Origin: Elusimicrobiota bacterium
GTDB lineage: Bacteria; Elusimicrobiota; Elusimicrobia; 2-01-FULL-59-12
Assembly (NCBI GenBank): GCA_041660185.1
Contig: JBAZWU010000004.1
Coordinates: 96,878 to 160,877 of the forward strand
DNA length: 64,000 nt
Direction: 5' to 3'
Below are positions 5,015 to 62,663 of this stretch, in pieces (position 1 is the stretch's first letter; the number at the start of each line of letters is the position of its first letter). The position numbers were made by a program, and so were the translations under genes. Under the pieces are notes generated by a model. That model was given only the letters and a program-made list of their open reading frames with translations. It was not told where the DNA came from and made no database searches.

Positions 5015-5199
5015 GGGCGGTTCCGGCTTACCGACCCGTGGCGCGCGGTTTCTTTTTCGACGTCTCGGCTCAGACCAGCCCGCGAACTAGTGGAACGCTC
5101 CTGGAGGTCGCCTCTGGCGACCAAGCCAGCGCGGTCTGAGCCGTCTTCGCCGAGACATCGGAGAAACCGCAAGCCACTCTCGGAAAGCCGGAACCGCCC
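5015..5199. repeat. long-hairpin element, family LH, copy 1 (about 185 bp)
   Basis: The terminal inverted arms GGGCGGTTCCGGCTT / AAGCCGGAACCGCCC enclose a core that is about 85% identical to the copy at 14094-14288. Confidence 0.75.
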
Positions 5200-7987: not shown

Positions 7988-8093
7988 ACCCTCACCCCGA
8001 CCCTCCCCCTCAACAGGGGGAGGGAGCCGATAGAGCGGAAGTCGTTCCTTCTCCCTGTTGAGGGAGAAGGTGGCCGGAGGCCGGATGAGGGGC
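7988..8093. repeat. MITE-like element, family 3 (ACCCTCACCCC... TIR), copy A with a degenerate right end
   Basis: The left arm matches the copies at 29471 and 32977, including the hairpins CCCTCCCC-loop-GGGGAGGG and CCCTCTCCC-TGTTGA-GGGAGAAGG. Confidence 0.65.
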
Positions 8094-14094: not shown

Positions 14095-14288
14095 GGAGGG
14101 AGCCGCCCTGGATTTCCGACCCGTGGCGTGCGGTTTCTTTTTCGGCGATTCGGCTCAGACCGCCCGCGAACTCGTGGAATGCTCCTGGAGTTCGCCTTTG
14201 GCGACCGAGCCAGCGCGGGCGTAAAGCGTCTTCGCCGAATCGCTTGAAACCGCAAGGCCACTCTCGTAAACCCAGGGCGGCTCCCTCC
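14094..14288. repeat. long-hairpin element, family LH, copy 2
   Basis: The core aligns to 5015-5199. The terminal arms differ (GGGAGCCGCCCTGG / CCAGGGCGGCTCCC) but still pair. The internal stem also carries compensatory changes (GATTCGGC/GCCGAATC versus GTCTCGGC/GCCGAGAC). Confidence 0.75.
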
Positions 14289-15909: not shown

Positions 15910-16251
15910 ATGGATATCTTCCTGAGCCATAGTAACCACGCCGACGACTTGCCTCTGATTAATATGCTGTCATTGGCTTTTAAGGTGCTCGGAATCAATC
16001 TCCACGTTGTCGAACGAGCTCCGCGCCCCGGCAAAGCTATCGGAGAGAAGATCGTTCAGACAATGGACGCCTGCGACGAGGTGCTTGTCCTGTATACGAA
16101 TCATGCTCAGGGACGCCAAGATGTTGAGGCTGAAATCGGTTTGGCCAAGGCCAGCAGCAGGCCGGCTCCTCCCGTTTTCATTACGGAATTCCCGGCGAAT
16201 AAGCCAGCTCTCGTTCAGGGCTGTGAGGAGGGGGTGAGGGGACGGGGGTGA
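15910..16251 (+). CDS. standalone TIR-like (DUF1863/TIR_2-like) domain protein, about 113 aa
   Basis: Starts MDIFLSHSNHADD, then LVLYTNHAQ, a pattern typical of TIR-like folds. GGAGGA lies 8 nt upstream of the ATG. The track ORF starts earlier at 15850. Confidence 0.45.
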   Translation: MDIFLSHSNHADDLPLINMLSLAFKVLGINLHVVERAPRPGKAIGEKIVQTMDACDEVLVLYTNHAQGRQDVEAEIGLAKASSRPAPPVFITEFPANKPALVQGCEEGVRGRG

Positions 16252-16268
16252 GGGGACGTAGTTGCAGC
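16230..16268. repeat. REP family 2-like half element with an internal tandem duplication (GGGGGTGAGGGGACG x2, then AGGGGACGTAGTTGC)
   Basis: Matches the left arm of the family 2 elements at 48109, 56246 and 61638. Confidence 0.55.
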
Positions 16269-17613: not shown

Positions 17614-19401
17614 GTGAAACGAACGTCTTATTGCGGCGATTTGCGCAAATCCCATTTCGGGCAACCCCAGATTCTCTGCGGATGGATCCATAGCCGGCGC
17701 GATCATGGCGGAGTCATCTTCTGCGATCTTCGCGACCGCTCCGGTCTCGTGCAGATCGTCTTCCGTCCCGAGAAAAAAGATCTTTTTGCCAAGGCCCAGG
17801 ACCTGGGAAATGAATATGTGGTCCAGGTCAGCGGGAAAGTTCTGGAACGGCCGGCGGGTACGCGCAACGCCAATATTCCGACCGGTGATGTTGAAATCGA
17901 TGTGGAAAGCCTGGACGTCCTCAATACCTCCAAGCCATCGCCTTTTGAAATTTCCGAATATTCCGAAGCGGGGGAGGAAACCCGCCTGCGCTACCGGTTT
18001 TTAGATTTACGGCGCCCGCCGCTTCAGAAGAATATTCTGCGCCGGCACCAAATCGCCCAGGCGATCCGCAGCCATCTCGCCCAGGATGGTTTTATCGAGA
18101 TCGAAACGCCTTTTCTGACGAAATCAACGCCGGAAGGTGCGCGCGATTTTCTGGTGCCTTCCCGTTTGTCCCCTGGATCGTTCTATGCGCTTCCCCAGAG
18201 CCCCCAGCTTTTTAAACAGATCCTGATGGTGGCGGGCTATGACAAATACTTCCAGGTTGCCCGCTGCTTCCGCGATGAAGACTTGCGTGCGGATCGCCAG
18301 CCCGAATTTACCCAGGTTGATCTCGAGATGTCTTTCGTCGACGAAGAGGATGTCCAGCGGGCGGTGGAAGGTTTTGTGAAAGAGGCTTTTCAGGTCGCGT
18401 CGGGCCAGCCGTTCCCCGGTCCTGTTCCGCATCTTTCTTATGAGGAGGTCCTGAACCGCTTTGGTTCGGATGCGCCGGATATGCGTTACGGAATGGAGCT
18501 GGCGGATTTTTCCGAAACGGTTCGCGGCTGCGGCTTCCAGGTATTTGCCAAGACGGTCGGGCAGGGGGGAACGGTCCGGGGGATTACCGTACCGCGTGGG
18601 GCGGTCTTCTCCCGCAAAGAGACCGACGATCTCACCCAGTGGGCGAACACCCTCGGTGCCAAGGGGCTTGCCTGGATCAAATGGACGGCCAGCGGCCCCG
18701 AGTCGCCCATCGCTAAATTTTTCAAGCCCGCGGAACTGCAGGCCATCCGCGAAAAGGCCCAGGCCCAGGAAGGCGACATCACCTTTTTTGTGGCGGATGC
18801 GTCGGCGGTGGCGTACAAGATTCTCGGTCTTTTGCGTCGGCGGATGGCGGAAAGCCAGAAATTGATTCCCGGAGGGCAGTGGAAATTCCTCTGGGTGGAG
18901 AAATTCCCTTCGTTTGAATGGGATGAAGAGACGAAACGCTGGAACGCGGTGCACCATCCGTTCACTGCGCCTCGCCAGGAGGATTGGGGAAAAATCCGGA
19001 GCGTCTTGGAATCCAAAGCCTGGACTCCGGGGCAGAACCAACTGCAGGAAGTCCGTGCAAGAGCCTATGACCTGATTCTGAACGGCGTTGAGATCGGTGG
19101 AGGAAGCATCCGTATTCACTCCACTGCTGACCAGGACCTGATTTTCCGGTTGCTGCAGATCCCTCCGGAAACCGCGCAGCTTCAGTTTGGATTTTTGCTG
19201 GAGGCCCTGGCTTACGGCGCTCCTCCTCATGGCGGATTTGCGCTGGGACTTGACCGGTTTGTCGCGCTTCTGGCCGGAGAGCCTTCGATCCGGGATGTAA
19301 TCGCTTTCCCGAAGACCCAAAAAGGAGTCGATTTGATGTCCAATGCTCCTTCACCAGTTTCACCAATACAATTAAGAGAATTAGGGATCAAATTATCGTA
19401 G
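17614..19401 (+). CDS. aspS: aspartate--tRNA ligase
   Basis: Class II aaRS motifs (FRDEDLRADRQPEFTQVD, GGGSIR). The N-terminus aligns to E. coli AspRS from a GTG at 17614 with AGGAGAG 5 nt upstream. The track start at 17560 is probably too early. Confidence 0.9.
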   Translation: MKRTSYCGDLRKSHFGQPQILCGWIHSRRDHGGVIFCDLRDRSGLVQIVFRPEKKDLFAKAQDLGNEYVVQVSGKVLERPAGTRNANIPTGDVEIDVESLDVLNTSKPSPFEISEYSEAGEETRLRYRFLDLRRPPLQKNILRRHQIAQAIRSHLAQDGFIEIETPFLTKSTPEGARDFLVPSRLSPGSFYALPQSPQLFKQILMVAGYDKYFQVARCFRDEDLRADRQPEFTQVDLEMSFVDEEDVQRAVEGFVKEAFQVASGQPFPGPVPHLSYEEVLNRFGSDAPDMRYGMELADFSETVRGCGFQVFAKTVGQGGTVRGITVPRGAVFSRKETDDLTQWANTLGAKGLAWIKWTASGPESPIAKFFKPAELQAIREKAQAQEGDITFFVADASAVAYKILGLLRRRMAESQKLIPGGQWKFLWVEKFPSFEWDEETKRWNAVHHPFTAPRQEDWGKIRSVLESKAWTPGQNQLQEVRARAYDLILNGVEIGGGSIRIHSTADQDLIFRLLQIPPETAQLQFGFLLEALAYGAPPHGGFALGLDRFVALLAGEPSIRDVIAFPKTQKGVDLMSNAPSPVSPIQLRELGIKLS

Positions 19402-19486
19402 TGGCGGACGGCTGTCTGCCGGGATATCCACCCGTAGCGGGTCGACAGCCGTCGACCCCTACATCGTTGACCCTTTCGTCGAACAA

Positions 19487-32961: not shown

Positions 32962-32976
32962 TTTTACCCTCACCCC

Positions 32977-33066
32977 AGCCCTCCCCCTCCGCAGGGGGAG
33001 GGAGCATCAGATTCTTTACAGCCATCATCCCCTCTCCCTGTTGAGGGAGAGGGTCAGGGTGAGGGT
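32977..33066. repeat. MITE-like element, family 3
   Basis: ACCCTCACCCCAGCCC / GGGTCAGGGTGAGGGT terminal inverted repeats. Confidence 0.75.
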
Positions 33067-36284: not shown

Positions 36285-37982
36285 ATGAGACAAAGGCAAA
36301 AGCTCAATAATAGGAAGCTCCCACGCAGACCGCTTGCTCTTTATGGGGTAAGGGGTCTGCTCTCGTTTTATCTGGCCGGTTGTTTGTCGCTGGCGGCCTG
36401 GGCGGCCCCGACGGGGCGTGTGGATGTGCTTCGAGGCCAGGCGGACAAGCGGCTTCCGGGAGTCGTCCAGTGGGAGGCCGTTCAACCCGGAGATAAACTG
36501 GAAGAAGGCACCACCGTCCGCACCGGGGATCAGTCCGAACTCCAGATTCTCACCGGCAGAGGCCATCGTTTTGTCGTTAAGTCCGCAACGCTTTTCGAGC
36601 TTACCAGCCTCCAGGACGACCAGACCAAAGGACGCCTGGAAACAGGCCGGGTTTTGTCCAAAGTCAAACGCCTCCGCGAGAAGGAACAATTTTCTATTCA
36701 AACCCCTGCCGCGGTCTGTGCCGTCCGCGGGACCGAATTTGAGACAGCGGCTGGAGAGCGGGGAACATGGGTATTCGTCTACCGCGGGGTGGTCGGTGTC
36801 ATGGCCTCCGGTGCCGGGGGCGAAACGGCTCTTCGGGCGGGACAAATGACAGCCGTTCACGACGGCACGATCGAATTGCCGCGGCCCATTCCTCAGCAGG
36901 GTCTCTCCGGCAGGGATTCCGCTCTGGCTCGTGACGCCCGGCATGAAGTGGCGCTCGACATGACGCGGAACCAGGTGATTGCCGCGGCCGCCGAGGAACG
37001 GCGCCTGGCCGAGTATCAGGAAGGCAAAAGCATGACCGATGTGGAAGGGAAACGAGTTCGTCTGGAAGAGTACATTGTCCGCTCAGCCCCCAATCAATTT
37101 AAGCTGGTTGTCTTGAACGAACGGGCTCAGTCTCAGCTGGATTACTTCTATTACAAGGGAACCTTTAATAAGGATTTGCCGACGGATCTTTCTGTGGCGC
37201 TGAAAGACCTTTCCGGAAAAATCGGGGCCTCCGCTCCGGAGTATTACCTGACCGCTTATGAAATGGCCCAATCCAACACTCAGGACTCGGTCCATGACAC
37301 CGCGACGGGAGGGCACCTCGTCAAAGTCACCCAGGATGGAGAAGGCAACTATATTCTCAGCGACCCCTCGGACCCCGACAATACTCGCACGATAGAGGCG
37401 GCTGAGCTTCAAACGGATGTGAACAATGAAATTTCTTACAAGATTTATAACCCGCTGACGGACAGCTTCTCTGTTGTTTCGGAAGCTCAGAAGGACGCGT
37501 CAAACCAATTTGGTGTCTATCTCCCGGAGAACGAAACCTACAGAGACCTGGTGCCGGCGGATACGATTTGGAAAACCCGTTTTAATACCTATGAGCATGC
37601 GCTGAATAATGTCGTGAAGATGTCTTATGCCAAGTCTTCCGGGATCACGAATGTGCTCGCCTCCGCTCAAGACGCCAGCTGGACCTATGCCGGCGGGTTT
37701 TATTTCCCCGTGGTCACGACCGTTGCCGGCCAGATCGACTCCATCGTGACCAACTACTACGGCGACGGAACATTTGAGTCTTACCGGACGGTACTCATCG
37801 ACGATAACGGCGCCGTCGCTCCGACCAGCGCGTTCTCCGGCGTATCGACGGGATCCGCCTACCGGGGAGAGCTGCTGAAGTGGAACTATGAACAGCAGGT
37901 TACGGCCAGCGAATTTGAGGGGAGAAAGATTGATCTCGTGGTGGAGCCGAAAATATTCATCAAGAGCGGATTGATTCAATGA
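36285..37982 (+). CDS. FecR-domain secreted protein
   Basis: Signal peptide and a FecR-like region (QWEAVQPGDKLEEGTTVRTGDQSELQI...). Confidence 0.55.
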   Translation: MRQRQKLNNRKLPRRPLALYGVRGLLSFYLAGCLSLAAWAAPTGRVDVLRGQADKRLPGVVQWEAVQPGDKLEEGTTVRTGDQSELQILTGRGHRFVVKSATLFELTSLQDDQTKGRLETGRVLSKVKRLREKEQFSIQTPAAVCAVRGTEFETAAGERGTWVFVYRGVVGVMASGAGGETALRAGQMTAVHDGTIELPRPIPQQGLSGRDSALARDARHEVALDMTRNQVIAAAAEERRLAEYQEGKSMTDVEGKRVRLEEYIVRSAPNQFKLVVLNERAQSQLDYFYYKGTFNKDLPTDLSVALKDLSGKIGASAPEYYLTAYEMAQSNTQDSVHDTATGGHLVKVTQDGEGNYILSDPSDPDNTRTIEAAELQTDVNNEISYKIYNPLTDSFSVVSEAQKDASNQFGVYLPENETYRDLVPADTIWKTRFNTYEHALNNVVKMSYAKSSGITNVLASAQDASWTYAGGFYFPVVTTVAGQIDSIVTNYYGDGTFESYRTVLIDDNGAVAPTSAFSGVSTGSAYRGELLKWNYEQQVTASEFEGRKIDLVVEPKIFIKSGLIQ

Positions 37983-37994
37983 TCAACAGGATTT

Positions 37995-38073
37995 GTAGGG
38001 GCGGACCGCTGTCCGCCCGAATATTGGATTTCATGAGGGTCCTGAGGGCGGGCGCACATCGGTGCGCCCCGAC
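37995..38073. repeat. REP family 1 doublet with a compensated variant stem (GGGCGGAC...GTCCGCCC)
   Basis: Intercistronic, between the FecR-like gene and the beta-barrel gene. Confidence 0.8.
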
Positions 38074-45143: not shown

Positions 45144-45176
45144 TCAGGGGAATGGTATCGGCCATCCATCGGATTT

Positions 45177-45240
45177 GTAGGGGCGCACCGCCTGTGCGCC
45201 CGCCATTGGATTGTCCGGGCGGACAGCGGTCCGCCCCTAC
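45177..45240. repeat. REP family 1 doublet
   Basis: Lies between the giant-protein stop and the PorV-like start. Confidence 0.8.
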
Positions 45241-45247
45241 AGTTCTC

Positions 45248-46222
45248 ATGTTCCTCATGTTATTCGTCGGATCTGCGGCCCTCGCCAACGACAACACCGG
45301 CACCTCCGGCGCTGTTTTCCTGAAGATCGGTCCGGGCGCCAGACCGGTAGCGATGGGCGAAGCCTACACAGGTGTGGCCGATGACATTCATTCCATCTAT
45401 TGGAACCCGGCCGGACTCGGGTTCTTAAAGCGTCCCGAGTTGACCGGCATGCACATGCAGTATTTCCAGGCGATCAAATACGAATTTGCGGCTTTCGCTT
45501 ACCCGACGGAGTCCCAAGGGACCTGGGGATTTGCCGTGACCAATCTGCATACGGACGACCTCGAGGCCCGAACAGAGGATACGGATGCGTCTCTGGGGCA
45601 GTTCAGCGCCAATGACAGCGCGTATTGGCTCAGCTACGCGTATCCGGTGTCTTCCAGGCTTTCGGTGGGCGCCAATCTGAAATATATCCGGCAGACGCTC
45701 AACGATGTTCAGGCCAATGCCTACGCGACAGACGGCGGTCTTCTGTATGACACGGCCTGGCATGACCTGCGCCTGGGCGCTTCGATGCAGAACCTCGGCA
45801 GCCGCGTGAAGTTCGTATCGGAGTCGGATCCGCTTCCCTTGACCTTCCGTCTCGGCGCCAGCGCTCCCGTTCCCCTCGTGAGCCGGAACCTGCGTCTGGC
45901 CTCGGATTTGATCATGCCGCGCGACCATGCCATGGGAGTGGCTGTCGGCGGGGAGTACACCGGCCGGTTAATGGACGGTCTGAGTTATCAGGTTCGTTCC
46001 GGTTACCGGACGGACAGCGACGTGGAGGGCTTGAGCGGTGTGGCGGCCGGCGGCGGATTGACCTTTGGACGCGTCAGCTTTGATTTCGCCTGGGTTCCCT
46101 TTGGAGAGCTGGGCAACACCTACCGCTACGCCATTCATATCAAGTTCGGCGCAGGAGACGTGGAAGCGCAACCCAACCTGCAGATGCAGAAAGCCCGGGC
46201 GGACGACCCGCTCATGCTATAA
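45248..46222 (+). CDS. PorV-like (UPF0164-like) outer-membrane beta-barrel
   Basis: N-terminal GTSGAVFLKIGPGARPVAMGEAYTGVADDIHSIYWNPAGL signature. The track start at 45140 translates the REP. Confidence 0.55.
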   Translation: MFLMLFVGSAALANDNTGTSGAVFLKIGPGARPVAMGEAYTGVADDIHSIYWNPAGLGFLKRPELTGMHMQYFQAIKYEFAAFAYPTESQGTWGFAVTNLHTDDLEARTEDTDASLGQFSANDSAYWLSYAYPVSSRLSVGANLKYIRQTLNDVQANAYATDGGLLYDTAWHDLRLGASMQNLGSRVKFVSESDPLPLTFRLGASAPVPLVSRNLRLASDLIMPRDHAMGVAVGGEYTGRLMDGLSYQVRSGYRTDSDVEGLSGVAAGGGLTFGRVSFDFAWVPFGELGNTYRYAIHIKFGAGDVEAQPNLQMQKARADDPLML

Positions 46223-46269: not shown

Positions 46270-48102
46270 ATGACTAAACCGCGCCGGGCAGATGTTCGAA
46301 ATATCGCCATTATTGCGCACGTCGACCACGGGAAGACGACGTTGGTCGACGCCTTGCTCCAGCAGACCGGTGAATTCAAGGTCAAGCAGGATGCGGCCCA
46401 GGAAATGGTTCTGGACTCAAATGAGCTGGAACGCGAGCGCGGCATTACCATTTTGGCCAAATGCACTTCGGTCCCCTATAACGGAATCACCATCAACATC
46501 GTAGATACCCCCGGCCACGCGGATTTCGGCAGCGAGGTGGAGCGCATCCTGAAGATGGTGGACGGCGTGCTTCTGCTCGTGGACGCCAAAGACGGCCCCA
46601 TGCCGCAGACCCGGTTTGTTTTGAAGAAGTCGCTTGATCTGGGGCTTTGCCCGATTGTGGTCATCAATAAGATCGATGTGCCCGAGGCCGCTCCGGCGGA
46701 AGCGCTGAACCACACGTTCGACCTGTTCGTCAACCTTGGCGCGACCGATCCGCAGTTGGATTTTCCGATTATCTACGCGTCCGGCCGTCAGGGCTGGGCA
46801 ACGCTGGATTTGAAGACGCCTTCCAAAGACATGAAACCCCTGTTTGAAACCATCGTCAAACATGTCCCTCCGCCGCTGGCATTCGCGAATCAACCGCTTC
46901 AGATGCTGATCACCATGCTGGACTACAGCGATTTTGTCGGCCGCATCGGCATCGGACGCATCACCAGCGGATCCCTGACCAAGGGCCAGTCTGTAGTGCT
47001 CGTGCGTCCGGAAGGGAATGTTTCTTTCCGTGTGACCCAGCTGCAGAGTTTCTTTGGCCTGTCGCGACGGGATGTGGAAACCGCCCAGGCCGGGGACATC
47101 GTGGCGGTGGCCGGATGCGCGGACGTGACGGTGGGGCATACCTTTGCGTCGACGGAGAACCCGGTGGCGTTGCCGCCGCTGCAGATCGACGAACCAACCC
47201 TTTCCATGGATGTCCTGGTAAACGACAGCCCCTTTGCAGGGCAGGATGGGGTGTTTTTGACCACCCGCCAGCTTCGGGAACGTCTTCAGCGGGAGCAGGA
47301 AACGAACGTGGGCCTGCTCATTGAGGAAGTTGGAACCACCGGAGTATTTAAGGTGTCCGGGCGGGGGGAATTGCACCTCTCCATCCTCGTGGAGACCATG
47401 CGCCGTGAAGGATTTGAGCTGGCGGTGTCGCGGCCCGTGGTCATTTACAAAGAAGAAGACGGAAAGGTCCTGGAGCCGGCTGAATACCTGATCGTGGATG
47501 TCCATACCGATTATCAAGGCGCGGTACTGGAATCCCTTGGGCAGCGCGGTGCTGAGATGAAGAACATGGTGGTGGAGGGGACAGACCGGCTCCGGTTGGA
47601 GTATGTCATCACCGCCCGGGCGCTGATTGGATTTAAGAATGAACTTTTGACCCGCACGCGCGGCACCGGTATTATGCATCACAGTTTTTTCGGCTATATT
47701 CCTAAACAAGCGGAGATCTCCATCCGCCAGAATGGCGTCATGATCGCCAAGGAAGCGGGAGACACCACCGCGTATGCGCTTGAGAATCTTCAAGAGCGGG
47801 GCAAGCTGTTTATCGGCCCAACGGTGCCGGTTTACGAAGGCATGATCATCGGCGAGTATTCCCGCGACGTGGATGTGGTCGTCAACCCCTGCAAGAAAAA
47901 GCCGATGAGCAACATGCGGGCCTCCGGCTCGGACGATATGATCATGCTGACCCCGCACCGGACCCTGAGCCTGGAACAAGCCATCGAGTTTATCGGCCCG
48001 GACGAGCTGGTAGAAGTCACTCCCAGGAACCTCCGCCTGCGCAAAAAGCTCCGCGGATCCTCCAACCGCCGCAAAGCCGGCAGCACCGAAGCAGGAGCGT
48101 AA
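46270..48102 (+). CDS. typA: translational GTPase TypA/BipA
   Basis: G1 AHVDHGKTT, DTPGHADF, NKID, EF-G-like domains. Confidence 0.95.
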   Translation: MTKPRRADVRNIAIIAHVDHGKTTLVDALLQQTGEFKVKQDAAQEMVLDSNELERERGITILAKCTSVPYNGITINIVDTPGHADFGSEVERILKMVDGVLLLVDAKDGPMPQTRFVLKKSLDLGLCPIVVINKIDVPEAAPAEALNHTFDLFVNLGATDPQLDFPIIYASGRQGWATLDLKTPSKDMKPLFETIVKHVPPPLAFANQPLQMLITMLDYSDFVGRIGIGRITSGSLTKGQSVVLVRPEGNVSFRVTQLQSFFGLSRRDVETAQAGDIVAVAGCADVTVGHTFASTENPVALPPLQIDEPTLSMDVLVNDSPFAGQDGVFLTTRQLRERLQREQETNVGLLIEEVGTTGVFKVSGRGELHLSILVETMRREGFELAVSRPVVIYKEEDGKVLEPAEYLIVDVHTDYQGAVLESLGQRGAEMKNMVVEGTDRLRLEYVITARALIGFKNELLTRTRGTGIMHHSFFGYIPKQAEISIRQNGVMIAKEAGDTTAYALENLQERGKLFIGPTVPVYEGMIIGEYSRDVDVVVNPCKKKPMSNMRASGSDDMIMLTPHRTLSLEQAIEFIGPDELVEVTPRNLRLRKKLRGSSNRRKAGSTEAGA

Positions 48103-48108
48103 GGGCGC

Positions 48109-48139
48109 TAGGGGCTAGGGGACGTAGTTGCCTTGTTGC
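48109..48139. repeat. REP family 2 arm (TAGGGGCTAGGGGACGTAGTTGCC), left flank of the transposase
   Basis: Inverted relative to the arm at 49182-49207. Confidence 0.75.
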
Positions 48140-48178
48140 TTTCCCAGCGAATAAATCCACCCTAAAGCTATCTAAGAA

Positions 48179-49189
48179 GTGATGCCTCGCCAGCCCCGAA
48201 TCGAATCCCCTGGCCTTCTCTGCCACGTCATCGTTCGCGGCATTGAACGCCGCTGCATATTTCCTGCGGCTAACGATTATGGTGATTTCGTTGCGCGTAT
48301 GGCTCGTCTCTTTGGTCAAACCCGGACACCTTGCTTCGCCTGGGCACTCATGCCTAACCATATACATTTGCTTCTCATGATGGGGCTAACCAAGATCTCC
48401 AAGGTCATGCAACGCCTTCTGACCGGGTATGCGGTCAATTTCAATATTCGCTATCAGCGCACCGGGCATCTCTTCCAAAACCGCTATAAATCCATTCTCT
48501 GCAAGGAGGAAACATATTTCTTGAGACTTGTCCGCTACATTCATTTGAACCCCGTTCGGGCCGGACTTGTTAGGACTCCTCAAGACTTAGCTTCTTACCC
48601 TTGGACCGGACACGCCGCTGTTCTGGAAACCCAAAGGAATTCTTGGCAGGATGTGAATGGGGTTTTGGGGCGATTTGGTTCAAACAGAGCCACTGCCATA
48701 GCTGGCTATGAACGGTTCGTCTTGGAAGGGTGGGAGGAACCTCACCGGGATGAACTGGAAGGCGGTGGACTCCTTCGGAGCCTGGGTGGTGTGGGGGGTG
48801 CCTTAGCAGCGGCTCGGGATAACAACCGACAGATGTCAGACGTTCGCGTTTTAGGTGACGGTGACTTTGTCGAAGAAGTACTTCGGCAAGCCGATATCAG
48901 GGATCAAGCGAATAACGGATTCAAGGCCGTTTCGTTGGAGATGCTAATGCAAAAGATCGCAAAAGAGTTCAAAATCGATGCGCGGACGATTCAACTAAAG
49001 CGTCGGGAACGGAAAATTTCCAAGGCAAAGTCCATACTTATATTTGCAGCCGTGGAATGGCTTGGAAAACCATTGAAAGAAATAGCTGCTTTGACAAAAA
49101 TGTCAGCAGGTTGTGCCAGCCGGGCCATGCGCCGCGGTCAGGTGCTGGCGGAACAACTCAGCTTGGCAGCTGGATTCAAAAGGCAATAA
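48179..49189 (+). CDS. REP-associated tyrosine transposase (RAYT; IS200/IS605-like Y1 HUH) fused to a DnaA-C-like HTH domain
   Basis: HUH motif MPNHIHLL, a catalytic-Tyr region (QNRYKS) and the family N-terminus (LCHVIVRG...). The C-terminal KSILIFAAVEWLGKPLKEIAALTKMS resembles DnaA domain IV. The stop codon lies inside the right REP. Confidence 0.8.
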   Translation: MMPRQPRIESPGLLCHVIVRGIERRCIFPAANDYGDFVARMARLFGQTRTPCFAWALMPNHIHLLLMMGLTKISKVMQRLLTGYAVNFNIRYQRTGHLFQNRYKSILCKEETYFLRLVRYIHLNPVRAGLVRTPQDLASYPWTGHAAVLETQRNSWQDVNGVLGRFGSNRATAIAGYERFVLEGWEEPHRDELEGGGLLRSLGGVGGALAAARDNNRQMSDVRVLGDGDFVEEVLRQADIRDQANNGFKAVSLEMLMQKIAKEFKIDARTIQLKRRERKISKAKSILIFAAVEWLGKPLKEIAALTKMSAGCASRAMRRGQVLAEQLSLAAGFKRQ

Positions 49190-49207
49190 GGCAACTACGT
49201 CCCCTAC
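49182..49207. repeat. REP family 2 arm (GGCAATAAGGCAACTACGTCCCCTAC), right flank of the transposase
   Basis: Reverse complement of the left-arm consensus. Confidence 0.75.
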
Positions 49208-49345
49208 GCCCTTCGTTCAAGTTGAGCCCTTCTCCCCAGAAGAAACGCATCTTAAATTCAGCACGATTCAATCATTTTTGTTCAAAATGGCGCCGAGGCG
49301 GTTTTTCCTTGAAAACTTCTCTTTGCGGGGGTAAGGGAGAACACA

Positions 49346-49750
49346 ATGGGGCAAAAGCTGACCATCCTGCTTTTCCTGGCCGTTGTCCTGGGCGCTTTCA
49401 GCGCCCCTTCCTTTTCCGCCTCCTCCTGCGGCGATCAGGGTTTGGGCTGCAGCCAGGAAGAGAAGTGTTGCGAGCATACCGTGGCCAGCTTCACTAATGA
49501 CGGCGCCAGCATGCCTCCCTACATGGACGGGAAATGCGTCCCCAAAGGGCAAAGCTGCAGCGAGTTCTGGTGCGGCAACCAGCACTGCGAAAGCGGGTTT
49601 TTCGGTGTCCCAACCGTTTGCTGCGTCAATAACACCCCTGGTCTCGTGGTCGCCTATCAATGTGCCCACTCGGAACTGAGCTGCCCAGGCAACACCCAGC
49701 AACTGACCATCCGCCCTCCCACCATCACCTCCGGTCTTCGTAACAACTAA
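49346..49750 (+). CDS. small secreted cysteine-rich protein (12 Cys in about 110 mature residues)
   Basis: Signal peptide LTILLFLAVVLGAFSAPSFSA. CC and CxxxC spacing (KCC, WCGNQHC, VCC). Confidence 0.55.
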   Translation: MGQKLTILLFLAVVLGAFSAPSFSASSCGDQGLGCSQEEKCCEHTVASFTNDGASMPPYMDGKCVPKGQSCSEFWCGNQHCESGFFGVPTVCCVNNTPGLVVAYQCAHSELSCPGNTQQLTIRPPTITSGLRNN

Positions 49751-55700: not shown

Positions 55701-56249
55701 CCGATCATCGCCCTGACCGCCAGCGATCTGGAAAGCGACAAACAAGCCTGCCTGGCCGCGGGGATGGATGACGGCCTGTCTAAACCCATCAATGAAGCCG
55801 ACCTCCGGCGAGCGTTTGCGCGATGGCTGCCGATGAAGCACCTGGCCGCCGAAACACCTGTGTCTTCGTCTTCTCCTTCGACCCGCAACGATCCGCTGGA
55901 TCTCAAGCGCCTCTACAACTTTACCCGAGGCGACACCGAGATCGTCAAGAAGGTGTTAGGACTTTATCTTCAGGAAACCACCAAACGATTGGGACGGCTG
56001 GAGACAGCCATTCGTGAGGGGGATGCAAAGCAAGTGAGGATGGAAGCCCATGGTTGTTTGGGATCGAGCCTGAACTATGGCGCCACCGGTTTGACCAGTC
56101 CTTTCCGGGAGCTGGAACAAATGGGGGAAAAGGGCCAGTTGGATCGAGCCGCCGAAGTATATGCCGACATTCAAAATGAATTTGAAAAGGTCAAAGTATT
56201 CCTGAAAAGTTATTTCGAGTCCAACGCCTCCGGCCCGCAAAAAGCATAG
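52773..56249 (+). CDS. hybrid sensor histidine kinase: 7TM sensor, PAS, HisKA/HATPase, three receiver domains, C-terminal Hpt
   Basis: H-box [10 protein letters not shown], then N, G1 and G2 boxes. Three D-containing REC domains ([27 protein letters not shown]). An Hpt-like region (EAHGCLGSS). Confidence 0.85.
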
Positions 56250-56339
56250 GGGACGTAGAAAGCATAGGGGACGTAGTTGCCTTATTGCCTTTTGTCGCCA
56301 ATAAGGTAAATAAGGCAATAAGGCAACTACGTCCCCTAT
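56246..56339. repeat. REP family 2, complete inverted pair (ATAGGGGACGTAG...CTACGTCCCCTAT) with a left-arm duplication
   Basis: Lies between the kinase stop and the stop of the minus-strand ATPase gene. Confidence 0.8.
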
Positions 56340-56343
56340 GACC

Positions 56344-57495
56344 TTAATTCAGAAGCTTGTTACTCCAGAGCTGTTCCATGAACACCTGCCAGGGCAGGAC
56401 CTCCACGGAACCGATGCGGCGAGGGGCGGGATCCCTGGAAACGACAATCTGGCGCTGAACAGAGTATTCTTCGGCGAAAGCTTTCAAGCCTCGCCAGTGA
56501 CGCTCATCCGCCAATTCCGTTGATTTAACTTCTACGGCGATTTGGGCGTCTCCAAGAATAAAATCGACTTCATACCCGGACGTGGTCCGCCAATACGACA
56601 GCGGATAACGCAAACCGGAATAGTGCGCATGCGCCCGGAGTTCCATCGCCATCCAATGTTCAAAAGCTTTGCCGAAGGCTTCGCTCCTTGGCTCGATGGT
56701 CCCACGACGCAACAGCGTATTGGCCAGTCCGACGTCGAAAAAGTAGAACTTGGAAGCCTGAACGGTACGGCGTTTGGGTCGTTTGAGATAGGCGGGTAAT
56801 TCCCAGCCGATCAGCGTGTCGTTCAAAATGTCGAAGTAGCTTCTGACCGTCGGAGCTGACACGCCGCAGTCGCGCGCCACATTGCTGTACTGGAGCGCCT
56901 CTCCACAGCTGAAGGCCGCGGCGTCCAGAAATCGCGAGAAGGCCGGCAGATTGCGCGTCAACGCCTCGGCCATGACTTCTTCTTTTAGATAGTCGCCGAC
57001 ATAAGCGTGCCAGCGCAAGCCCGCATCGTCCGCCAGATAATGCCGCGGCAGGAGCCCCTGATTCAGGGCCCGTTCAAGATTAAAATCAGGGATCTCCGGA
57101 TAAACCAGCGGGAACAGTTCGTAGCGGATCGCTCGCCCGCCCAACAGATTGGCGGCGCCGTGTTTCAGCTTTCGTGCGCTTGAACCGCAGAGGATGAACC
57201 GGATCCGCTCGTTGACAATAAGCCATTGCACTTCATCGAGAAGAGTTGGGAGCTTCTGTACTTCATCAATGATAACGATCCGCTCCCGACGCCGTGGATC
57301 AGCGAGTATATTCTCGCGAAGACTGGCGGGACGTCGGCTGAAATGCTCGAATTGATCAGACAATAGGAGGTCAACATAATTGGCATCCGGCAGAAGTCCG
57401 CGCAACAGAGTGCTTTTTCCTGTTTGGCGAGGGCCCCACAAGAAGCACGAATCGTTCGATATTTCAGGCAGATTTTGTATTCTTTTAAAATTCAT
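56344..57495 (-). CDS. AAA+ ATPase with a DUF4143-type C-terminal domain
   Basis: Walker A GPRQTGKST, Walker B VIIDEVQ, a restriction-endonuclease-like C-terminal region. Confidence 0.75.
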   Translation of the reverse strand: MNFKRIQNLPEISNDSCFLWGPRQTGKSTLLRGLLPDANYVDLLLSDQFEHFSRRPASLRENILADPRRRERIVIIDEVQKLPTLLDEVQWLIVNERIRFILCGSSARKLKHGAANLLGGRAIRYELFPLVYPEIPDFNLERALNQGLLPRHYLADDAGLRWHAYVGDYLKEEVMAEALTRNLPAFSRFLDAAAFSCGEALQYSNVARDCGVSAPTVRSYFDILNDTLIGWELPAYLKRPKRRTVQASKFYFFDVGLANTLLRRGTIEPRSEAFGKAFEHWMAMELRAHAHYSGLRYPLSYWRTTSGYEVDFILGDAQIAVEVKSTELADERHWRGLKAFAEEYSVQRQIVVSRDPAPRRIGSVEVLPWQVFMEQLWSNKLLN

Positions 57496-59758: not shown

Positions 59759-61099
59759 ATGCCGAAAACATTCATCCTCGACACGAACGTCCTCATCCAC
59801 GATCCGGAAGCTCTATTTACATTTGAAGGCAGTACCGTTGTTATCCCGCTCACGGTTGTTGAAGAGCTGGACGGTTTAAAGCGGGGACACGATACCCGCA
59901 GCCGGAACGCCCGCTCAGTGTCCCGTTACTTGAACGATCTCCGCCAGCACGGCAAGCTGTCCGAAGGAGTTCCGCTCGAACATGGAGGGCGTCTGCGGGT
60001 CGAAGTGGCCGCGCACGCCGCTCTTCCTCCGCTTTTTGCTGATCACTCAAAGGACAACTCCATTTTGGGAACCGCGCTGGCCCTGTCGCAAAAGGGCGAA
60101 AGCGTTGTTTTCATCACCAAGGACATCAACCTGCGCATCAAGGCCGAAGCCATCGGCCTGACCGCCGAAGATTACGAAAAAGAAAAAGTCTCTCCGGACC
60201 AGCTCTACTCCGGGTGGCGGGACCTGCTGGTCCCCTCGTCTCAGATCGATCAATTTTTCAAAACCAAACGCCTGGACCCGCCTCCCTTGAAGCCGGTGCC
60301 GGGATCACCGGACGGCACCGTGGTGAAGTGGATGCCCAATGAAATGGCGATTTTGCACAGCCAGGAGGGGGATTCGCAAAGCGCTTTGGTCCGATACGAC
60401 GCCAAGACCCAGAAAATGCTTCCACTGCTTCATGCCAATGCCAAGCCGTGGGGGCTCAAGCCCCAGAACACCGAGCAGAAGTTCGCGCTGGAGCTTCTCC
60501 TGGATCCCAAGGTGGAGCTGGTATCCCTCGTGGGGGTCCCCGGAGCCGGCAAAACGCTTCTAGCCCTGGCCGCGGCTCTGGAGCAGATCCTGACGGAAAA
60601 AACCTACCGCCGGCTGCTCGTGGCGCGGCCGGTGATCGCGGTCGGGCAGGATATCGGTTTTCTCCCCGGCACGAAAGAAGATAAGCTGGAAAGCTGGATG
60701 GGGGCCATCTACGACAACCTGAATTTCCTCATGGACAATCCCGACAACCCGGGGACGGCTGACGAGGAAGAAGGATCGTTGTTTGAATCCGGCAAGATTG
60801 TGGTGGAAGCGGTAACGTTTATGCGGGGCCGCAGCCTGCCGAACCAGTTCATCATCATCGACGATGCCCAGAACCTGACGCCCCACGAAATGAAGACGGT
60901 CATCTCCCGCGTCGGCCAGGGATCCAAGATCGTGGTGACCGGAGATCCCTATCAGATCGACAATCCCTACCTGGATTCGGCGTCCACGGGGCTGGCGAAC
61001 CTGGTTGAAAAATTCAAAGGCCAGCTCGTTTACGGCCACATGACCTTCTCGAAGATTGAGCGCAGCACGCTGGCGGCGCTGGCCTCCGATTTGTTGTAG
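59759..61099 (+). CDS. PIN-domain–PhoH-like ATPase (YlaK/PhoH2-type)
   Basis: N-terminal PIN (ILDTNVLIHD...), Walker A GVPGAGKTLLA, a PhoH C-terminal region. The stop codon TAG is the GTAG of the downstream REP. Confidence 0.8.
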   Translation: MPKTFILDTNVLIHDPEALFTFEGSTVVIPLTVVEELDGLKRGHDTRSRNARSVSRYLNDLRQHGKLSEGVPLEHGGRLRVEVAAHAALPPLFADHSKDNSILGTALALSQKGESVVFITKDINLRIKAEAIGLTAEDYEKEKVSPDQLYSGWRDLLVPSSQIDQFFKTKRLDPPPLKPVPGSPDGTVVKWMPNEMAILHSQEGDSQSALVRYDAKTQKMLPLLHANAKPWGLKPQNTEQKFALELLLDPKVELVSLVGVPGAGKTLLALAAALEQILTEKTYRRLLVARPVIAVGQDIGFLPGTKEDKLESWMGAIYDNLNFLMDNPDNPGTADEEEGSLFESGKIVVEAVTFMRGRSLPNQFIIIDDAQNLTPHEMKTVISRVGQGSKIVVTGDPYQIDNPYLDSASTGLANLVEKFKGQLVYGHMTFSKIERSTLAALASDLL

Positions 61100-61211
61100 G
61101 GGCGCACCGCTGTGCGCCCGCCCATCCAATTCAGTGTGAATACCCTAACATCATTCTGCTCCGATGTTTTCATCTAACGTCTTGATCGGGCGCACAGCGG
61201 TGCGCCCCTAC
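61096..61211. repeat. REP family 1 doublet (68-bp spacer)
   Basis: GTAGGGGCGCACCGCTGTGCGCCC ... GGGCGCACAGCGGTGCGCCCCTAC. Confidence 0.85.
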
Positions 61212-62663
61212 ATTCTCACGTTGATCGTCCTGGGAATCGGCACCTTCCTCCGCTTCCATGCCCTGGACCGTCAAAGCCTCTGGGACGATGAGATGTCCAC
61301 GCTCCAGACGATCTCAACCCCTCGGAGTGAGTTGATTCATCGTTTCCAGACCTACGAAATCCACCCGCCGCTGTATTTCTTTCAGATGAAGCTCTGGCAA
61401 AAAGCCGGGGCACGCTCGCTGGTCAATTTCCGCGCCAACTCGGCTTGCTGGGGCACGCTGTCCCTGCTTTTGATCTTCCTTCTGGGGCGCCGTTACGGCG
61501 GGCCCTGGGCCGGTTTGTGGGCGAGCGCCTATGCGGCTTTTTCACCCTATCACTTGTCCTACAGCCAGGAAATCCGTCCGTATGCGTTGGCCATCGTGAT
61601 CGCGTTGGCTGCGCTGTTAGTCTTGGAACAAGTGGTTATAGGGGACGTAGTTGCCTTTTTGCCTTATTGGCGAAAAAAAACAATAAGGCAAAAAGGCAAC
61701 TACGTCCCCTATGTTCCCTATGTTTCTTTATGGGTGATCCTTACGATCCTCTGGACCGCCCAGTTTTTCACGCATTACTGGGGCGCCTTTGTAGTATCCG
61801 CGCAAGCCCTCTATGCCTGGACGCGGCTGCTGGAGCGCCCGGCACGGATGCGGCTCCTCCGATCCGTGCTGATCGCGGGGGGATTGTTCTGCCTCTGGCT
61901 ACCGATTCTGTTGGCCCAGATGGAGGTTGTTCCAGCGCTGTCTTTCTGGGTGCCTCGCTTTTCATTCGCCAGTCTTTTGCAAACGTTCGGGGCGTTCAGC
62001 GGAATCTACTTTAATATGGCCTCCAGCACGTTTTACCTGCCCACGGTTACCGGCATTTTTGCTCTGCTGGCGCTGGCGCACGGCTTGGCGCTCGTGCACG
62101 GGCTTCGCCGCGGTCCCTCCGCGTTACGGTACTGGCTGTGTGTCGGACTGGCGATTCCCTGCCTGATCAGTCTCTGGAAACCAGCCATTTTTCTCTGGTA
62201 CCGCTACACGTTCCATCTGTACCCGGCTTTTTGCCTCCTGTTGGTTCTGGGGGCCTTGCGATGGCGGCCGCGCGCTCTGGGGATTCTGCTGCTCGCCACC
62301 TGCCTGGGGACGCAACTCTGGGGAAGCGCGATCTATTTTACCCGGTGGCAGAAGGCCAACCCGAAAGCGGTTGTTTCCTATATCCACTGGCTCCGGCAGC
62401 CGGAATCGATCGTGGTCCGGCCTTTTTACTTTGCCAGGCTTTTTCAGTTTTATGACCAGGGGACCCTTCCGGTCATCGACCAGCACCTGCTGGACAGCGT
62501 GGAGAAGCGCGCGGCGCTGAAGGGGAAGAAGATCATCCTGGTCGCTTTTAATGTCCCGTATGACCCGGTGACGGACGCCCTGCTCAGTGAATTTAAGGTG
62601 GTCTCCGCGCAAAATTTCCCGGGCCTGGCGCGTCTGGGGATCACCGTCTATCAGCTGGAATAG
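61164..62663 (+). CDS. GT39/GT83-like (ArnT/PMT-type) membrane glycosyltransferase-family protein carrying an in-frame REP family 2 insertion
   Basis: Multi-TM protein with an N-terminal DDE-type loop (RQSLWDDEMSTLQ). The track start at 61164 translates the REP1, so the true start is probably near 61216. The repeat element sits at 61638-61712. Confidence 0.6.
   Translation: MFSSNVLIGRTAVRPYILTLIVLGIGTFLRFHALDRQSLWDDEMSTLQTISTPRSELIHRFQTYEIHPPLYFFQMKLWQKAGARSLVNFRANSACWGTLSLLLIFLLGRRYGGPWAGLWASAYAAFSPYHLSYSQEIRPYALAIVIALAALLVLEQVVIGDVVAFLPYWRKKTIRQKGNYVPYVPYVSLWVILTILWTAQFFTHYWGAFVVSAQALYAWTRLLERPARMRLLRSVLIAGGLFCLWLPILLAQMEVVPALSFWVPRFSFASLLQTFGAFSGIYFNMASSTFYLPTVTGIFALLALAHGLALVHGLRRGPSALRYWLCVGLAIPCLISLWKPAIFLWYRYTFHLYPAFCLLLVLGALRWRPRALGILLLATCLGTQLWGSAIYFTRWQKANPKAVVSYIHWLRQPESIVVRPFYFARLFQFYDQGTLPVIDQHLLDSVEKRAALKGKKIILVAFNVPYDPVTDALLSEFKVVSAQNFPGLARLGITVYQLE
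61638..61712. repeat. REP family 2 complete inverted pair inside the GT39-like ORF (75 bp)
   Basis: ATAGGGGACGTAGTTGCCTTTTTGCC...GGCAACTACGTCCCCTAT. It is translated as VIGDVVAFLPYWRKKTIRQKGNYVPYV. Confidence 0.8.

Follow-up and report, generated by a model that had tools for sequence, protein, structure and literature searches.

Repeats that reside within coding sequences while keeping the reading frame open are uncommon, as the preliminary description of the locus presented here had noted, but they are already documented in other bacteria (PMC3733652). The closest described examples are the "REP-decorated proteins," in which intragenic dimers of GTAG/CGTC REPs encode 20–30 extra residues (Di Nocera, De Gregorio and Rocco, 2013, BMC Genomics 14:522; PMC3733652), and it has been suggested that such dimers occupy flexible linkers or loops, inactivating insertions being purged. 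TIRtrons, discussed in the same work, are genes for tyrosine transposases (TIRYT), of four sequence groups, flanked by long terminal inverted repeats (TIRs) that are not REPs, with dimers of the TIRs dispersed elsewhere (PMC3733652). Also related is the REPIN-RAYT system (Bertels and Rainey, 2011, PMC3116915; Bertels et al., 2017, PMC5581495), whose REP units, in their classical form, are short 5' GTAG-tagged hairpins, and whose REPINs are abundant and overwhelmingly extragenic. The classic precedent is presented by the Rickettsia palindromic elements (RPEs; Ogata et al., 2000), which, according to later summaries (PMC10969869, PMC3733652), are 100–150 bp in length, reside in-frame in conserved genes whose orthologues do not possess them, are found in reduced intracellular genomes and have no known transposase. 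The palindrome described here, 75 bp of mobile DNA residing in-frame in a gene for a membrane glycosyltransferase of family GT39, is a real, further example of this phenomenon.

The window, that is the whole 64-kb stretch of DNA analyzed, originates from a MAG of the Elusimicrobiota, and its positions 61638–61712 (plus strand) are occupied by what we call a REP2 dimer, a REPIN-like miniature element of 75 nt. Its two arms (61638–61669 and 61681–61712), of 32 nt each, are 100% complementary and are separated by an 11-nt loop (61670–61680, GCGAAAAAAAA), thus presenting the inverted units, the short spacer and the single long hairpin (32+11+32 nt) typical of REPINs. The complete inverted pair proposed earlier within the ORF at 61164–62663 is therefore real, and it starts on a codon boundary, its first codon being codon 159 of the ORF; the junctions are at 61637/61638, after GAACAAGTGGTT, and at 61712/61713, before GTTCCCTATGTT. 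As 75 nt correspond to 3 x 25 and the frame is free of stops, the element is translated as 25 residues (amino acids 159–183), IGDVVAFLPYWRKKTIRQKGNYVPY; the number of extra residues given in the preliminary description stands, while the peptide quoted there, at 27 letters, included one flanking V at each side. In either orientation the element can be read through in frames 1 and 3 (four of the six frames), the stops being in frame 2. The predicted folding energy is −61.9 kcal/mol for the RNA (z = −14, matched by none of 200 shuffled sequences) and −37.9 kcal/mol for single-stranded DNA (z = −15), and the GC content is 41%, versus 57% for the window. A search of Rfam with the element identified no curated RNA family, all matches being below threshold and to generic models of miRNA hairpins, and a terminator scan did not call the element as a terminator.

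The arm sequence recurs within the window at 48116–48134 (plus strand), at 49188–49206 (minus strand) and in a second dimer at 56263–56340, with a chance expectation of 0; the identity across these three other loci extends over 19–29 nt, and the window encodes six full REP2 units overall. The second dimer, possessing perfect 29-nt arms and a 20-nt centre, is intergenic, located between a convergent histidine-kinase gene (ending at 56249) and a minus-strand ATPase gene (ending at 56344). The asymmetric centre CCTTATTGGCGA is common to both dimers, in opposite orientations, which implies that it is the dimer that replicates as a unit. The two dimers differ in sequence, with one of the differences mirrored in both arms (T in the GT39 copy, A in the intergenic copy).

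Each of the dimers is accompanied by a partial copy of its own end. The hexamer CCCTAT (61716–61721, plus strand), located 3 nt past the insert, is a partial direct copy of the 3' end of the element (in the order CCCCTAT, GTT, CCCTAT), and an extra partial copy of the REP2 terminus, CATAGGGGACGTAG (56245–56260), adjoins the intergenic dimer. These end copies (CCCTAT and CTACGTCCCCTAT) are found on one side only at both dimers, with the same polarity. Judging from these two cases, CCCTAT may represent a target motif or an insertion footprint. Insertion in the IS200/IS605 family is polar and dependent on a target motif. The one-sided end copies of constant polarity recall such insertion, and MITEs derived from IS200/IS605 elements present a further likeness, as non-autonomous hairpin elements presumably mobilized by a Y1 HUH transposase. 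In contrast to the latter, the transposase found here belongs to a RAYT-like branch with a DnaA_C-like helix-turn-helix (HTH) domain, and TnpB is absent.

The gene for this transposase (48179–49189, plus strand, 336 aa; RAYT-like, or "TIRYT") is bracketed by REP2 units of approximately 30 nt in inverted orientation, the left one (48116–48139, plus strand) 40 nt upstream of the ORF and the right one (49179–49206, minus strand) overlapping the stop codon. The predicted protein possesses the motifs of a Y1/HUH tyrosine transposase, including the HUH motif (NHIHLL) and the tyrosine motif (YIHLNPV), along with the DnaA_C-like HTH at the C-terminus. It scores 36.5 bits against the Pfam model Y1_Tnp, above the cutoff of 23, and 63.7 bits against the NCBIfam model REP_Tyr_transpos, below the cutoff of 80. 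It has at least 7996 homologues, several of which are named RayT (JGI naming), while a sequence search of the PDB produced no match. A contig from another metagenome (L071) encodes a transposase of 59% identity with nearly identical units on its flanks, and positions 46654–49416 of the window are 100% identical to a further contig (L072). The transposase gene is 12 kb from the insertion in the GT39 gene, and the inserted element, the transposase gene and the intergenic sibling copy are all within 14 kb. Membership in a dispersed family of palindromic repeats, as originally proposed, is thus borne out by copies elsewhere in the window, including those flanking the cognate transposase gene.

The term REP, which the preliminary description had applied to this family, is appropriate with regard to a dispersed repeat, but not with regard to a classical REP. 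The single units flanking the transposase gene fail to fold (z = +0.4 and +0.3), and GTAG is present within the REP2 unit but without an adjoining hairpin. As the single units are not self-palindromic, they are best described as terminal inverted repeats of the transposase gene, of the TIRtron type. The gene is flanked by long non-REP inverted repeats, and dimers are dispersed at 56263–56340 and 61638–61712. The TIR core GGGGACGT agrees in only six of eight positions with GGGGWSAS, a feature of only some TIRtrons (PMC3733652). The likeness to TIRtrons includes a Y1 gene with non-palindromic inverted repeats of approximately 30 nt and dimers elsewhere at moderate or low copy number, and the likeness to REPIN-RAYT includes an inverted doublet folding into a long hairpin and an apparently single-copy Y1 transposase gene flanked by the units. 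Unlike in REPIN-RAYT, the units here are not hairpins, the copies identified are few, and one of them is intragenic. The copy number of the family appears to be low in what was searched: a scan of metagenomes for the repeat identified seven loci, three of them from the source sample, while a 17-mer scan of genome contigs (596 Gb) was uninformative, as its 68 single matches, in unrelated taxa, are close to the approximately 69 estimated by chance.

The gene carrying the insert (61164–62663, plus strand, 499 aa) encodes a GT39/PMT_2 membrane glycosyltransferase of the GT-C fold, identical to the NCBI protein MFA5975527.1 (Elusimicrobiota MAG; named glycosyltransferase family 39), and translation may truly begin farther downstream than the ATG, with the in-frame GTG of "VRPY" as one candidate. 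Foldseek matched the predicted structure with Pmt4, STT3, ArnT and PglB (probability 1.00, TM-scores of approximately 0.5), indicative of the GT-C fold, and the acidic motif by which the first extracytoplasmic loop of this fold is marked is represented by a nearly invariant W40-D41-D42-E43; a PDB sequence search with the GT39 profile produced no match. With the insert present, the Pfam PMT_2 match covers residues 67–158 and scores 25.0 bits, short of the 26.1-bit cutoff, and the alignment breaks exactly at the insertion point (residue 158). When the 25 residues are deleted, the match spans the junction (67–218) at 28.8 bits, above the cutoff. The frame continues for 316 residues past the insert, with every invariant residue of the orthologue family kept, in agreement with the earlier statement of a coherent downstream frame of more than 300 aa. 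Around the start codon of the gene, in the window as well as in two orthologues, GTAG-type REPs are present.

The AlphaFold model of the protein is of high confidence (mean pLDDT 92.3, pTM 0.91), with pLDDT decreasing only in the blocks that cover residues 161–190 (53, 48, and 71). The insert is thus the sole internal segment of low confidence, located between the helices at 140–159 and 187–203, which conforms to the original placement in a loop between hydrophobic segments, and it is predicted to reside where the fold would tolerate it, between two transmembrane helices. By homology with the topology of ArnT, this is the loop between TM4 and TM5, and from counts of charged residues along with this topology we infer that the loop is cytoplasmic. 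Counting helices forward from TM1 would make the loop periplasmic, and this alternative was rejected, as it would also make the conserved loops and the C-terminal domain cytoplasmic and leave the loops rich in arginine on the outer side.

Approximately 60 orthologues, at most 60% identical to the host protein and syntenic with respect to a PIN/PhoH gene upstream, could be aligned, and none possesses the 25 residues, the nearest relatives (P0002 and P0012) encoding short unrelated loops at this site. Together with the restored PMT_2 match, this supports the claim of an insertion into the gene. The host gene itself is represented in one assembly only, the best protein in the database being otherwise no more than 60% identical, and, with no closely related empty-site allele among the orthologues, the exact sequence prior to insertion is inferred. 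The position of the insert is not unique to this genome: 14 of 59 orthologues encode at least eight extra residues in the same loop (fewer than eight in the remaining 45), and this one loop has received 14 of the family's 23 long internal insertions. All internal insertions of eight or more residues are in three K/R-rich loops, predicted to be cytoplasmic, and none are in the predicted periplasmic loops. In each of the seven long-loop orthologues for which DNA was retrieved, the loop is encoded by strongly palindromic DNA, of at least four unrelated sequence types besides REP2, thus at least five families in all. Some relatives with filled and empty loops are as close as 75–77% identity, and one clade retains shortened remnants (...GLPLQ). 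As these palindromes are of unrelated types, the TM4–TM5 loop is permissive and has undergone repeated colonization. At the DNA level, the orthologues P0014 (filled) and P0027 (empty) are too diverged for their alignment to define insertion boundaries, and the protein alignment and the tree were used instead. A BLAST search for further copies of the loop elements of the orthologues, in their own short contigs, returned a single 13-nt match (L077). At the latter locus, a related GTAG doublet can be seen by eye at the start codon.

Of the systems described above, the REP-decorated proteins present the closest likeness, with palindromic dimers in ORFs of known proteins and 20–30 residues added (PMC3733652). 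However, the units found here are not GTAG/CGTC-tagged self-palindromes, and they reside in an Elusimicrobiota MAG, where the gene hit encodes a polytopic membrane enzyme, whereas that study stresses genes for DNA replication and repair; in addition, here the cognate transposase is encoded on the same contig, and a single loop has been hit by several families. With the RPEs, the locus shares mobile palindromes residing in-frame, orthologues free of them, and sites predicted to be tolerated by the fold. It differs from them in the length of 75 nt and in the linked transposase gene.

Most probably, then, the insert is a mobile dimer derived from the TIRs of the RAYT-like transposase gene that has inserted in-frame into a loop of the GT39 enzyme. 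The 75-bp palindrome would be a non-autonomous element, composed of the terminal inverted repeats of the gene at 48179–49189, whose product would move such dimers in trans, as single-stranded hairpins, by analogy with IS200/IS605 elements and REPINs. As the single units do not form palindromes by themselves and the RAYT score (NCBIfam) is below the cutoff, the activity of this transposase on REP2 dimers is assumed from the same analogy. One dimer would have landed between codons 158 and 159, adding to the loop between the two transmembrane helices an extension of 25 residues, net-positive and probably disordered; as the loop is naturally variable and tolerant, the fold would be kept, and the decorated protein is presumably made and active. 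The in-frame state would then be a matter of survivorship rather than design: at other positions in the gene, or in the stop-containing frame, an insertion would have destroyed the gene and been lost, leaving the in-frame copy. Selection for frame-preserving copies, one of the two possibilities raised in the preliminary description, does not characterize the family, as the other dimer measures 76 nt between the same boundaries. The notion that both dimers are multiples of three was likewise dropped, since it depends on the choice of boundaries, identical boundaries resulting in 76 and 75 nt.

As to alternative explanations, the one that survives best, while still unlikely, is that the GT39 gene is a fresh casualty, the insertion being recent, the enzyme misfolded or not made, and the frame open by a two-in-three chance; the 32-bp stem in the mRNA could block ribosomes or attract RNase III. 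The perfect arms, the stability of the RNA stem (−61.9 kcal/mol), the presence of the insert in a single genome and the PMT_2 score below the curated cutoff are all in line with such a scenario, as is the fact that two of three frames are open, which makes the open frame weak evidence of selection. However, 13 other orthologues retain long inserts in this loop, with palindromic DNA in all seven for which DNA was retrieved, and these, along with the remnants in one clade, indicate that tolerance of such insertions by the loop extends over evolutionary time. The arms of the intergenic dimer are also perfect, yet its sequence differs from that of the GT39 copy, including the one mirrored change, and thus perfect arms need not mean youth. 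The remaining part of the protein also keeps the invariant residues and a model of high confidence. Perfect arms could still point to a very recent event, whose tolerance by the protein selection has not yet had time to test.

We are somewhat more skeptical of the proposal that the hairpin is functional and has been selected repeatedly, as a translational pause between helices, as a determinant of stability or RNase III cleavage, or as a site where one family replaces another. The colonization of one loop by at least five unrelated palindromic families, the concentration of long insertions at this site (14 of 23) and the GTAG-type REPs around the start codon in the window and in two orthologues would be expected in this case, but approximately three quarters of the orthologues (45 of 59) have no long insert there, the element resembles neither a terminator nor any curated RNA family, and two other predicted cytoplasmic loops are also hit while predicted periplasmic loops never are, as a simple tolerance filter would produce. 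Similarly doubtful is the related idea that the TM4–TM5 loop is a preferred or selected landing site, which draws on the same families, representing at least seven events, and on the REPs around the start codon. If true, a strong DNA or RNA hairpin at this position would have a function: it could pace translation or membrane insertion, set the half-life of the mRNA via RNase III, or serve as a self-renewing intragenic site in which repeat families replace one another.

A false joining of a repeat into the gene during metagenome assembly appears very improbable. The source is indeed a MAG, with the protein encoded on one contig only, the sole source for both junctions, and the insertion site is beyond the reach of L072 and L074, JGI contigs that are identical to the window elsewhere. 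However, a complete 75-nt dimer is located exactly on a codon boundary, with in-frame gene sequence on both sides and both flanks aligning with orthologues, while false joins at repeats normally link unrelated loci and do not restore one gene. Finally, the notion of a native conserved loop with a fortuitous likeness to the repeat, for which no supporting point was found, can practically be dismissed, as it is refuted by the alignment in which all orthologues lack the 25 residues, by the perfect DNA palindrome with its 19–29 nt of identity to three other loci, and by the search of 1.84 billion representative proteins, in which the peptide was found in no other protein, the two matches being chance ones to unrelated repetitive proteins.

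In conclusion, this locus presents a clean case of a transposase-linked palindromic repeat that is now part of a conserved membrane enzyme, in a little-studied phylum, the Elusimicrobiota. At the practical level, such inserts lower domain scores below curated cutoffs, PMT_2 being the case in point, and the segments they add appear as spurious "novel" peptides in catalogues of metagenomic proteins. With one loop colonized often and the predicted periplasmic catalytic loops never, the family provides a natural map of insertion tolerance in GT-C enzymes, useful for engineering tags or reporters into them, and it illustrates that selfish repeats can add coding sequence.

The glycosyltransferase family 39 (GT39) gene at 61164-62663 (+ strand) carries, at 61638-61712, a dimer of the REP2 repeat family (arms and centre ATAGGGGACGTAGTTGCCTTTTTGCCTTATTG-GCGAAAAAAAA-CAATAAGGCAAAAAGGCAACTACGTCCCCTAT in the window sequence), which, among the palindromic repeats of the window, is the only copy placed deep inside a long ORF. 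Its 32-nt arms are 100% complementary, with 11 nt between them (repeat finder), and it folds at -61.9 kcal/mol as RNA (z = -14, with none of 200 shuffles equaling it) and at -37.9 kcal/mol as single-stranded DNA (z = -15), far beyond chance, so the preliminary description had placed the pair correctly. It is possible that such a hairpin is functional, but the data do not require a function. As 61638 - 61164 = 474 = 158 x 3, the insert begins exactly at codon 159 of the 499-aa frame and, being 75 nt long, is read through as 25 residues (IGDVVAFLPYWRKKTIRQKGNYVPY, net charge +4), as had been proposed.

The ORF product has an identical NCBI entry, MFA5975527.1, named [quoted passage not shown] Pfam PMT_2 matches its residues 67-158 (profile 2-93 of 160), ending exactly at the insertion point, at 25.0 bits, below the curated 26.1; removal of the 25 residues extends it to 67-218 (profile 2-150) and raises the score to 28.8 bits, above this cutoff. 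About 60 GT39 orthologues were found, the closest 58-60% identical, with orthology supported by conservation of the upstream PIN/PhoH-like gene in the four orthologue loci that have upstream sequence. The 25 residues stand opposite gaps in all other aligned sequences, which marks them as an insertion rather than native sequence, and the nearest relatives (proteins P0002 and P0012) have short, unrelated loops; no close empty-site allele was found among the orthologues. All invariant and nearly invariant family residues are retained, and the AlphaFold model (63 sequences; mean pLDDT 92.3, pTM 0.91) has the insert, between helices 140-159 and 187-203, as its sole internal low-confidence stretch (53, 48, and 71 for blocks 161-170, 171-180, and 181-190). 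Foldseek groups the model with GT-C enzymes (Pmt4, STT3, ArnT, PglB). Together, these predictions indicate that the element sits within a loop of a membrane glycosyltransferase of the GT-C type and leaves the predicted fold undisturbed, in agreement with the earlier contention that the gene has not been broken and that the insert falls between hydrophobic segments.

The side of the membrane was assessed by counting helices back from the C-terminal domain, which, to our knowledge, is extracytoplasmic in all GT-C enzymes, and by loop charge across 59 orthologues. Loops 218-233, 313-320, and 363-372 are K/R-rich in these and would be cytoplasmic. Loops 133-141, 202-208 (THYWG), and 243-296, which are conserved, would lie on the outer side. 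By the same count and charges, the insertion loop, which would correspond to the TM4-TM5 loop in the 13-TM topology of ArnT, is probably cytoplasmic. Its short versions are basic too, typically ERRS or ERRA, and the net positive charge of the inserted peptide fits the positive-inside rule.

The same loop is filled in other orthologues as well. At least 8 extra residues are present at the site in 14 of the 59, and in all seven long-loop orthologues with DNA fetched these are encoded by strongly palindromic DNA. Three loci (L077, L080, and L083, encoding P0015, P0003, and P0051) have GC-rich hairpins paired in GTAG...CTAC doublets, as in classical REPINs, L076 (P0006) has a CCCCGG/GCCGGC double hairpin, L078 (P0014) and L082 (P0050) have C/G-tract palindromes, and L081 (P0021) has a further palindrome type; folding of L084 (P0027), an empty-loop relative, reveals no structure at the site. 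Neighbour joining places the filled P0014 and P0015 within groups of empty-loop relatives that share 75-77% identity with them, and one clade holds both full and shortened (...GLPLQ) forms of a GTAG doublet. The palindrome types and the nesting of filled among empty relatives show that at least five unrelated element types have landed in one GT39 loop, in several independent events. Every other internal insertion of 8 residues or more lies in one of two further loops predicted to be cytoplasmic, behind residue 222 in 3 sequences and behind residues 366-371 in 5, and none was found in predicted periplasmic loops of the 59 orthologues. Examples in the orthologue alignment are HPPRVQAGDPWVPP in P0008, P0023, and P0035 and TSDAKVRTSDV in P0014; the sole such insert folded (L078, 11021-11098) is palindromic, at -33.9 kcal/mol. 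The simplest reading is that of a tolerance filter: repeats insert widely, and survivors are found only in dispensable cytoplasmic loops.

A GT39 gene recently killed by the insertion would agree with the perfect arms and with the presence of this gene in one genome only, but it is improbable, as similar inserts persist in orthologues and a sibling REP2 dimer in the window is equally perfect yet different in sequence. An assembly artefact, conceivable for a site covered by one assembly only, is unlikely, the insert being complete and on a codon boundary, with the gene continuing in frame beyond it.

In the insert, frames 1 and 3 are stop-free in both orientations, leaving four of the six reading frames open, and thus a 75-nt copy inserted into any gene would keep the downstream frame, avoiding a stop two times in three. 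The sibling dimer, when bounded the same way, is 76 nt, so the REP2 family as such is not constrained to multiples of three, and the suggested selection for frame-preserving copies holds as survivorship only, not as a property of the family.

This sibling, matched by a 29-mer from the insert arm (chance expectation 0), is a perfect 29+20+29 dimer at 56263-56340, located between a histidine-kinase stop (56249) and a convergent ATPase stop (56344). The two dimers, in opposite orientations in the window, have a common asymmetric centre, made up of CCTTATTGGCGA and an A-rich stretch after it, which indicates that whole dimers were copied rather than single units, as in the REPIN idea of Bertels and Rainey. 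Set in the same intrinsic orientation, each of the two carries, just beyond its 3' side, an incomplete direct repeat of its own terminus: ...CCCCTAT, GTT, and CCCTATG for the GT39 dimer (copy at 61716-61722), and ...CCCCTATG, CTTT, and CTACGTCCCCTATG for the intergenic one (56245-56260, other strand). As a lead from two cases, these may represent a target motif or the footprint of a polar, IS200/IS605-like insertion. A G-rich stretch at 16225-16268, ending in GAGGGGACGTAGTTGC, matches the REP2 core at 15 of 19 positions (4 mismatches); it could be a degenerate single unit or a coincidental match. A 19-mer taken from the arm hit seven loci among the JGI metagenome contigs. The L069 contig (Ga0172379_10195883, 1427 nt), which comes from the source metagenome and lies outside the window, contains a single REP2 unit accompanied by a partial outer copy, as well as a unit like those of the separate, GTAG-type REP1 family, and probably represents a further locus of this genome.

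In the metagenome locus L072, two inverted REP2 units, 1.07 kb apart, surround a 336-aa ORF. This locus is 100% identical to window positions 46654-49416, which places a Y1/HUH transposase gene in the window at 48179-49189, between REP2 units at 48116-48134 (+) and 49188-49206 (-). Against Pfam Y1_Tnp (IS200-like transposase), its product scores 36.5 bits and so exceeds the cutoff of 23. Two further scores stay under their cutoffs: 63.7 bits (E = 1.7e-17) for NCBIfam "REP-associated tyrosine transposase" (equivalog cutoff 80) and 27.6 bits for a C-terminal DnaA_C-like helix-turn-helix (cutoff 31.5). NHIHLL (HUH motif) and RYIHLNPV (tyrosine motif) can be read in the protein sequence. At least 7996 homologues are present at E <= 1e-10, many from Elusimicrobiota and several with the source name "REP element-mobilizing transposase RayT"; the two-domain architecture is common to thousands of ~335-aa homologues. 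In L071, from another metagenome, a 59%-identical transposase has nearly identical flanking units, and thus the repeat-transposase pairing is conserved; the terminal inverted repeat (TIR) matches that of the window at 27 of 28 nt, a higher conservation than that of the protein. TAGGGG- or AAGGG-like motifs lie just outside the transposase-flanking units of the window. The single units have no fold of their own (z = +0.4 and +0.3) and so behave as TIRs, not as classical self-palindromic REPs, which refines the original designation as a REP element. By analogy with IS200/IS605 TnpA and the E. coli TnpA-REP, the transposase linked to REP2 would act in trans on the folded single-stranded dimer.

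The window is repeat-rich. A GTAG-type doublet (GTAGGGGCGCACCGCTGTGCGCCC; 61095-61120 and 61187-61212), of the classical type and different from REP2, straddles the GT39 ORF start, its first GTAG providing the TAG stop of the upstream PIN/PhoH gene (end 61099) and its second unit supplying the residues GRTAVRPY of the annotated N-terminus. A stem predicted at -74 kcal/mol encloses the ATG, making the true start and the translation efficiency of GT39 uncertain. GTAG repeats are found around start codons in L077 and L080 too. Further REP1 copies are at 222-320, 19398-19462, 37981-38024, and 45167-45250; several border long open frames on the 5' side and probably fall within untranslated leaders that an ORF caller would count as N-terminal coding sequence. 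A tblastn search of the window detected no second RAYT gene, one for REP1. The stretches at 8000-8071, 32966-33066, 14095-14288, and 5038-5177 hold at least two other palindromic families, one of C/G-tract ACCCTC...GAGGGT elements and one of GAAACCGC... elements.

As to known systems, the REP2 arrangement of a transposase with flanking units and dispersed dimers matches the "TIRtrons," tyrosine-transposase genes with long flanking TIRs and dispersed TIR dimers (Di Nocera et al., 2013, PMC3733652). Intragenic REPs are known in several species, above all in Opitutus terrae and Rickettsia conorii, and are probably neutral, being positioned in flexible linkers or loops (PMC3733652), and the Rickettsia RPEs are classic in-frame palindromic insertions (PMC3733652, PMC10969869). 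The finding is real and its initial interpretation is supported, but the event type is already documented and the novelty is modest. Within a non-exhaustive literature search, neither PMC3733652 nor PMC10969869 describes unrelated families repeatedly colonizing a single loop in an orthologue group, or insertions confined to those loops of a GT-C enzyme that are predicted to be cytoplasmic. The main points of interest are the linkage to a transposase on the same contig and the recurrent use of one loop in the orthologues.
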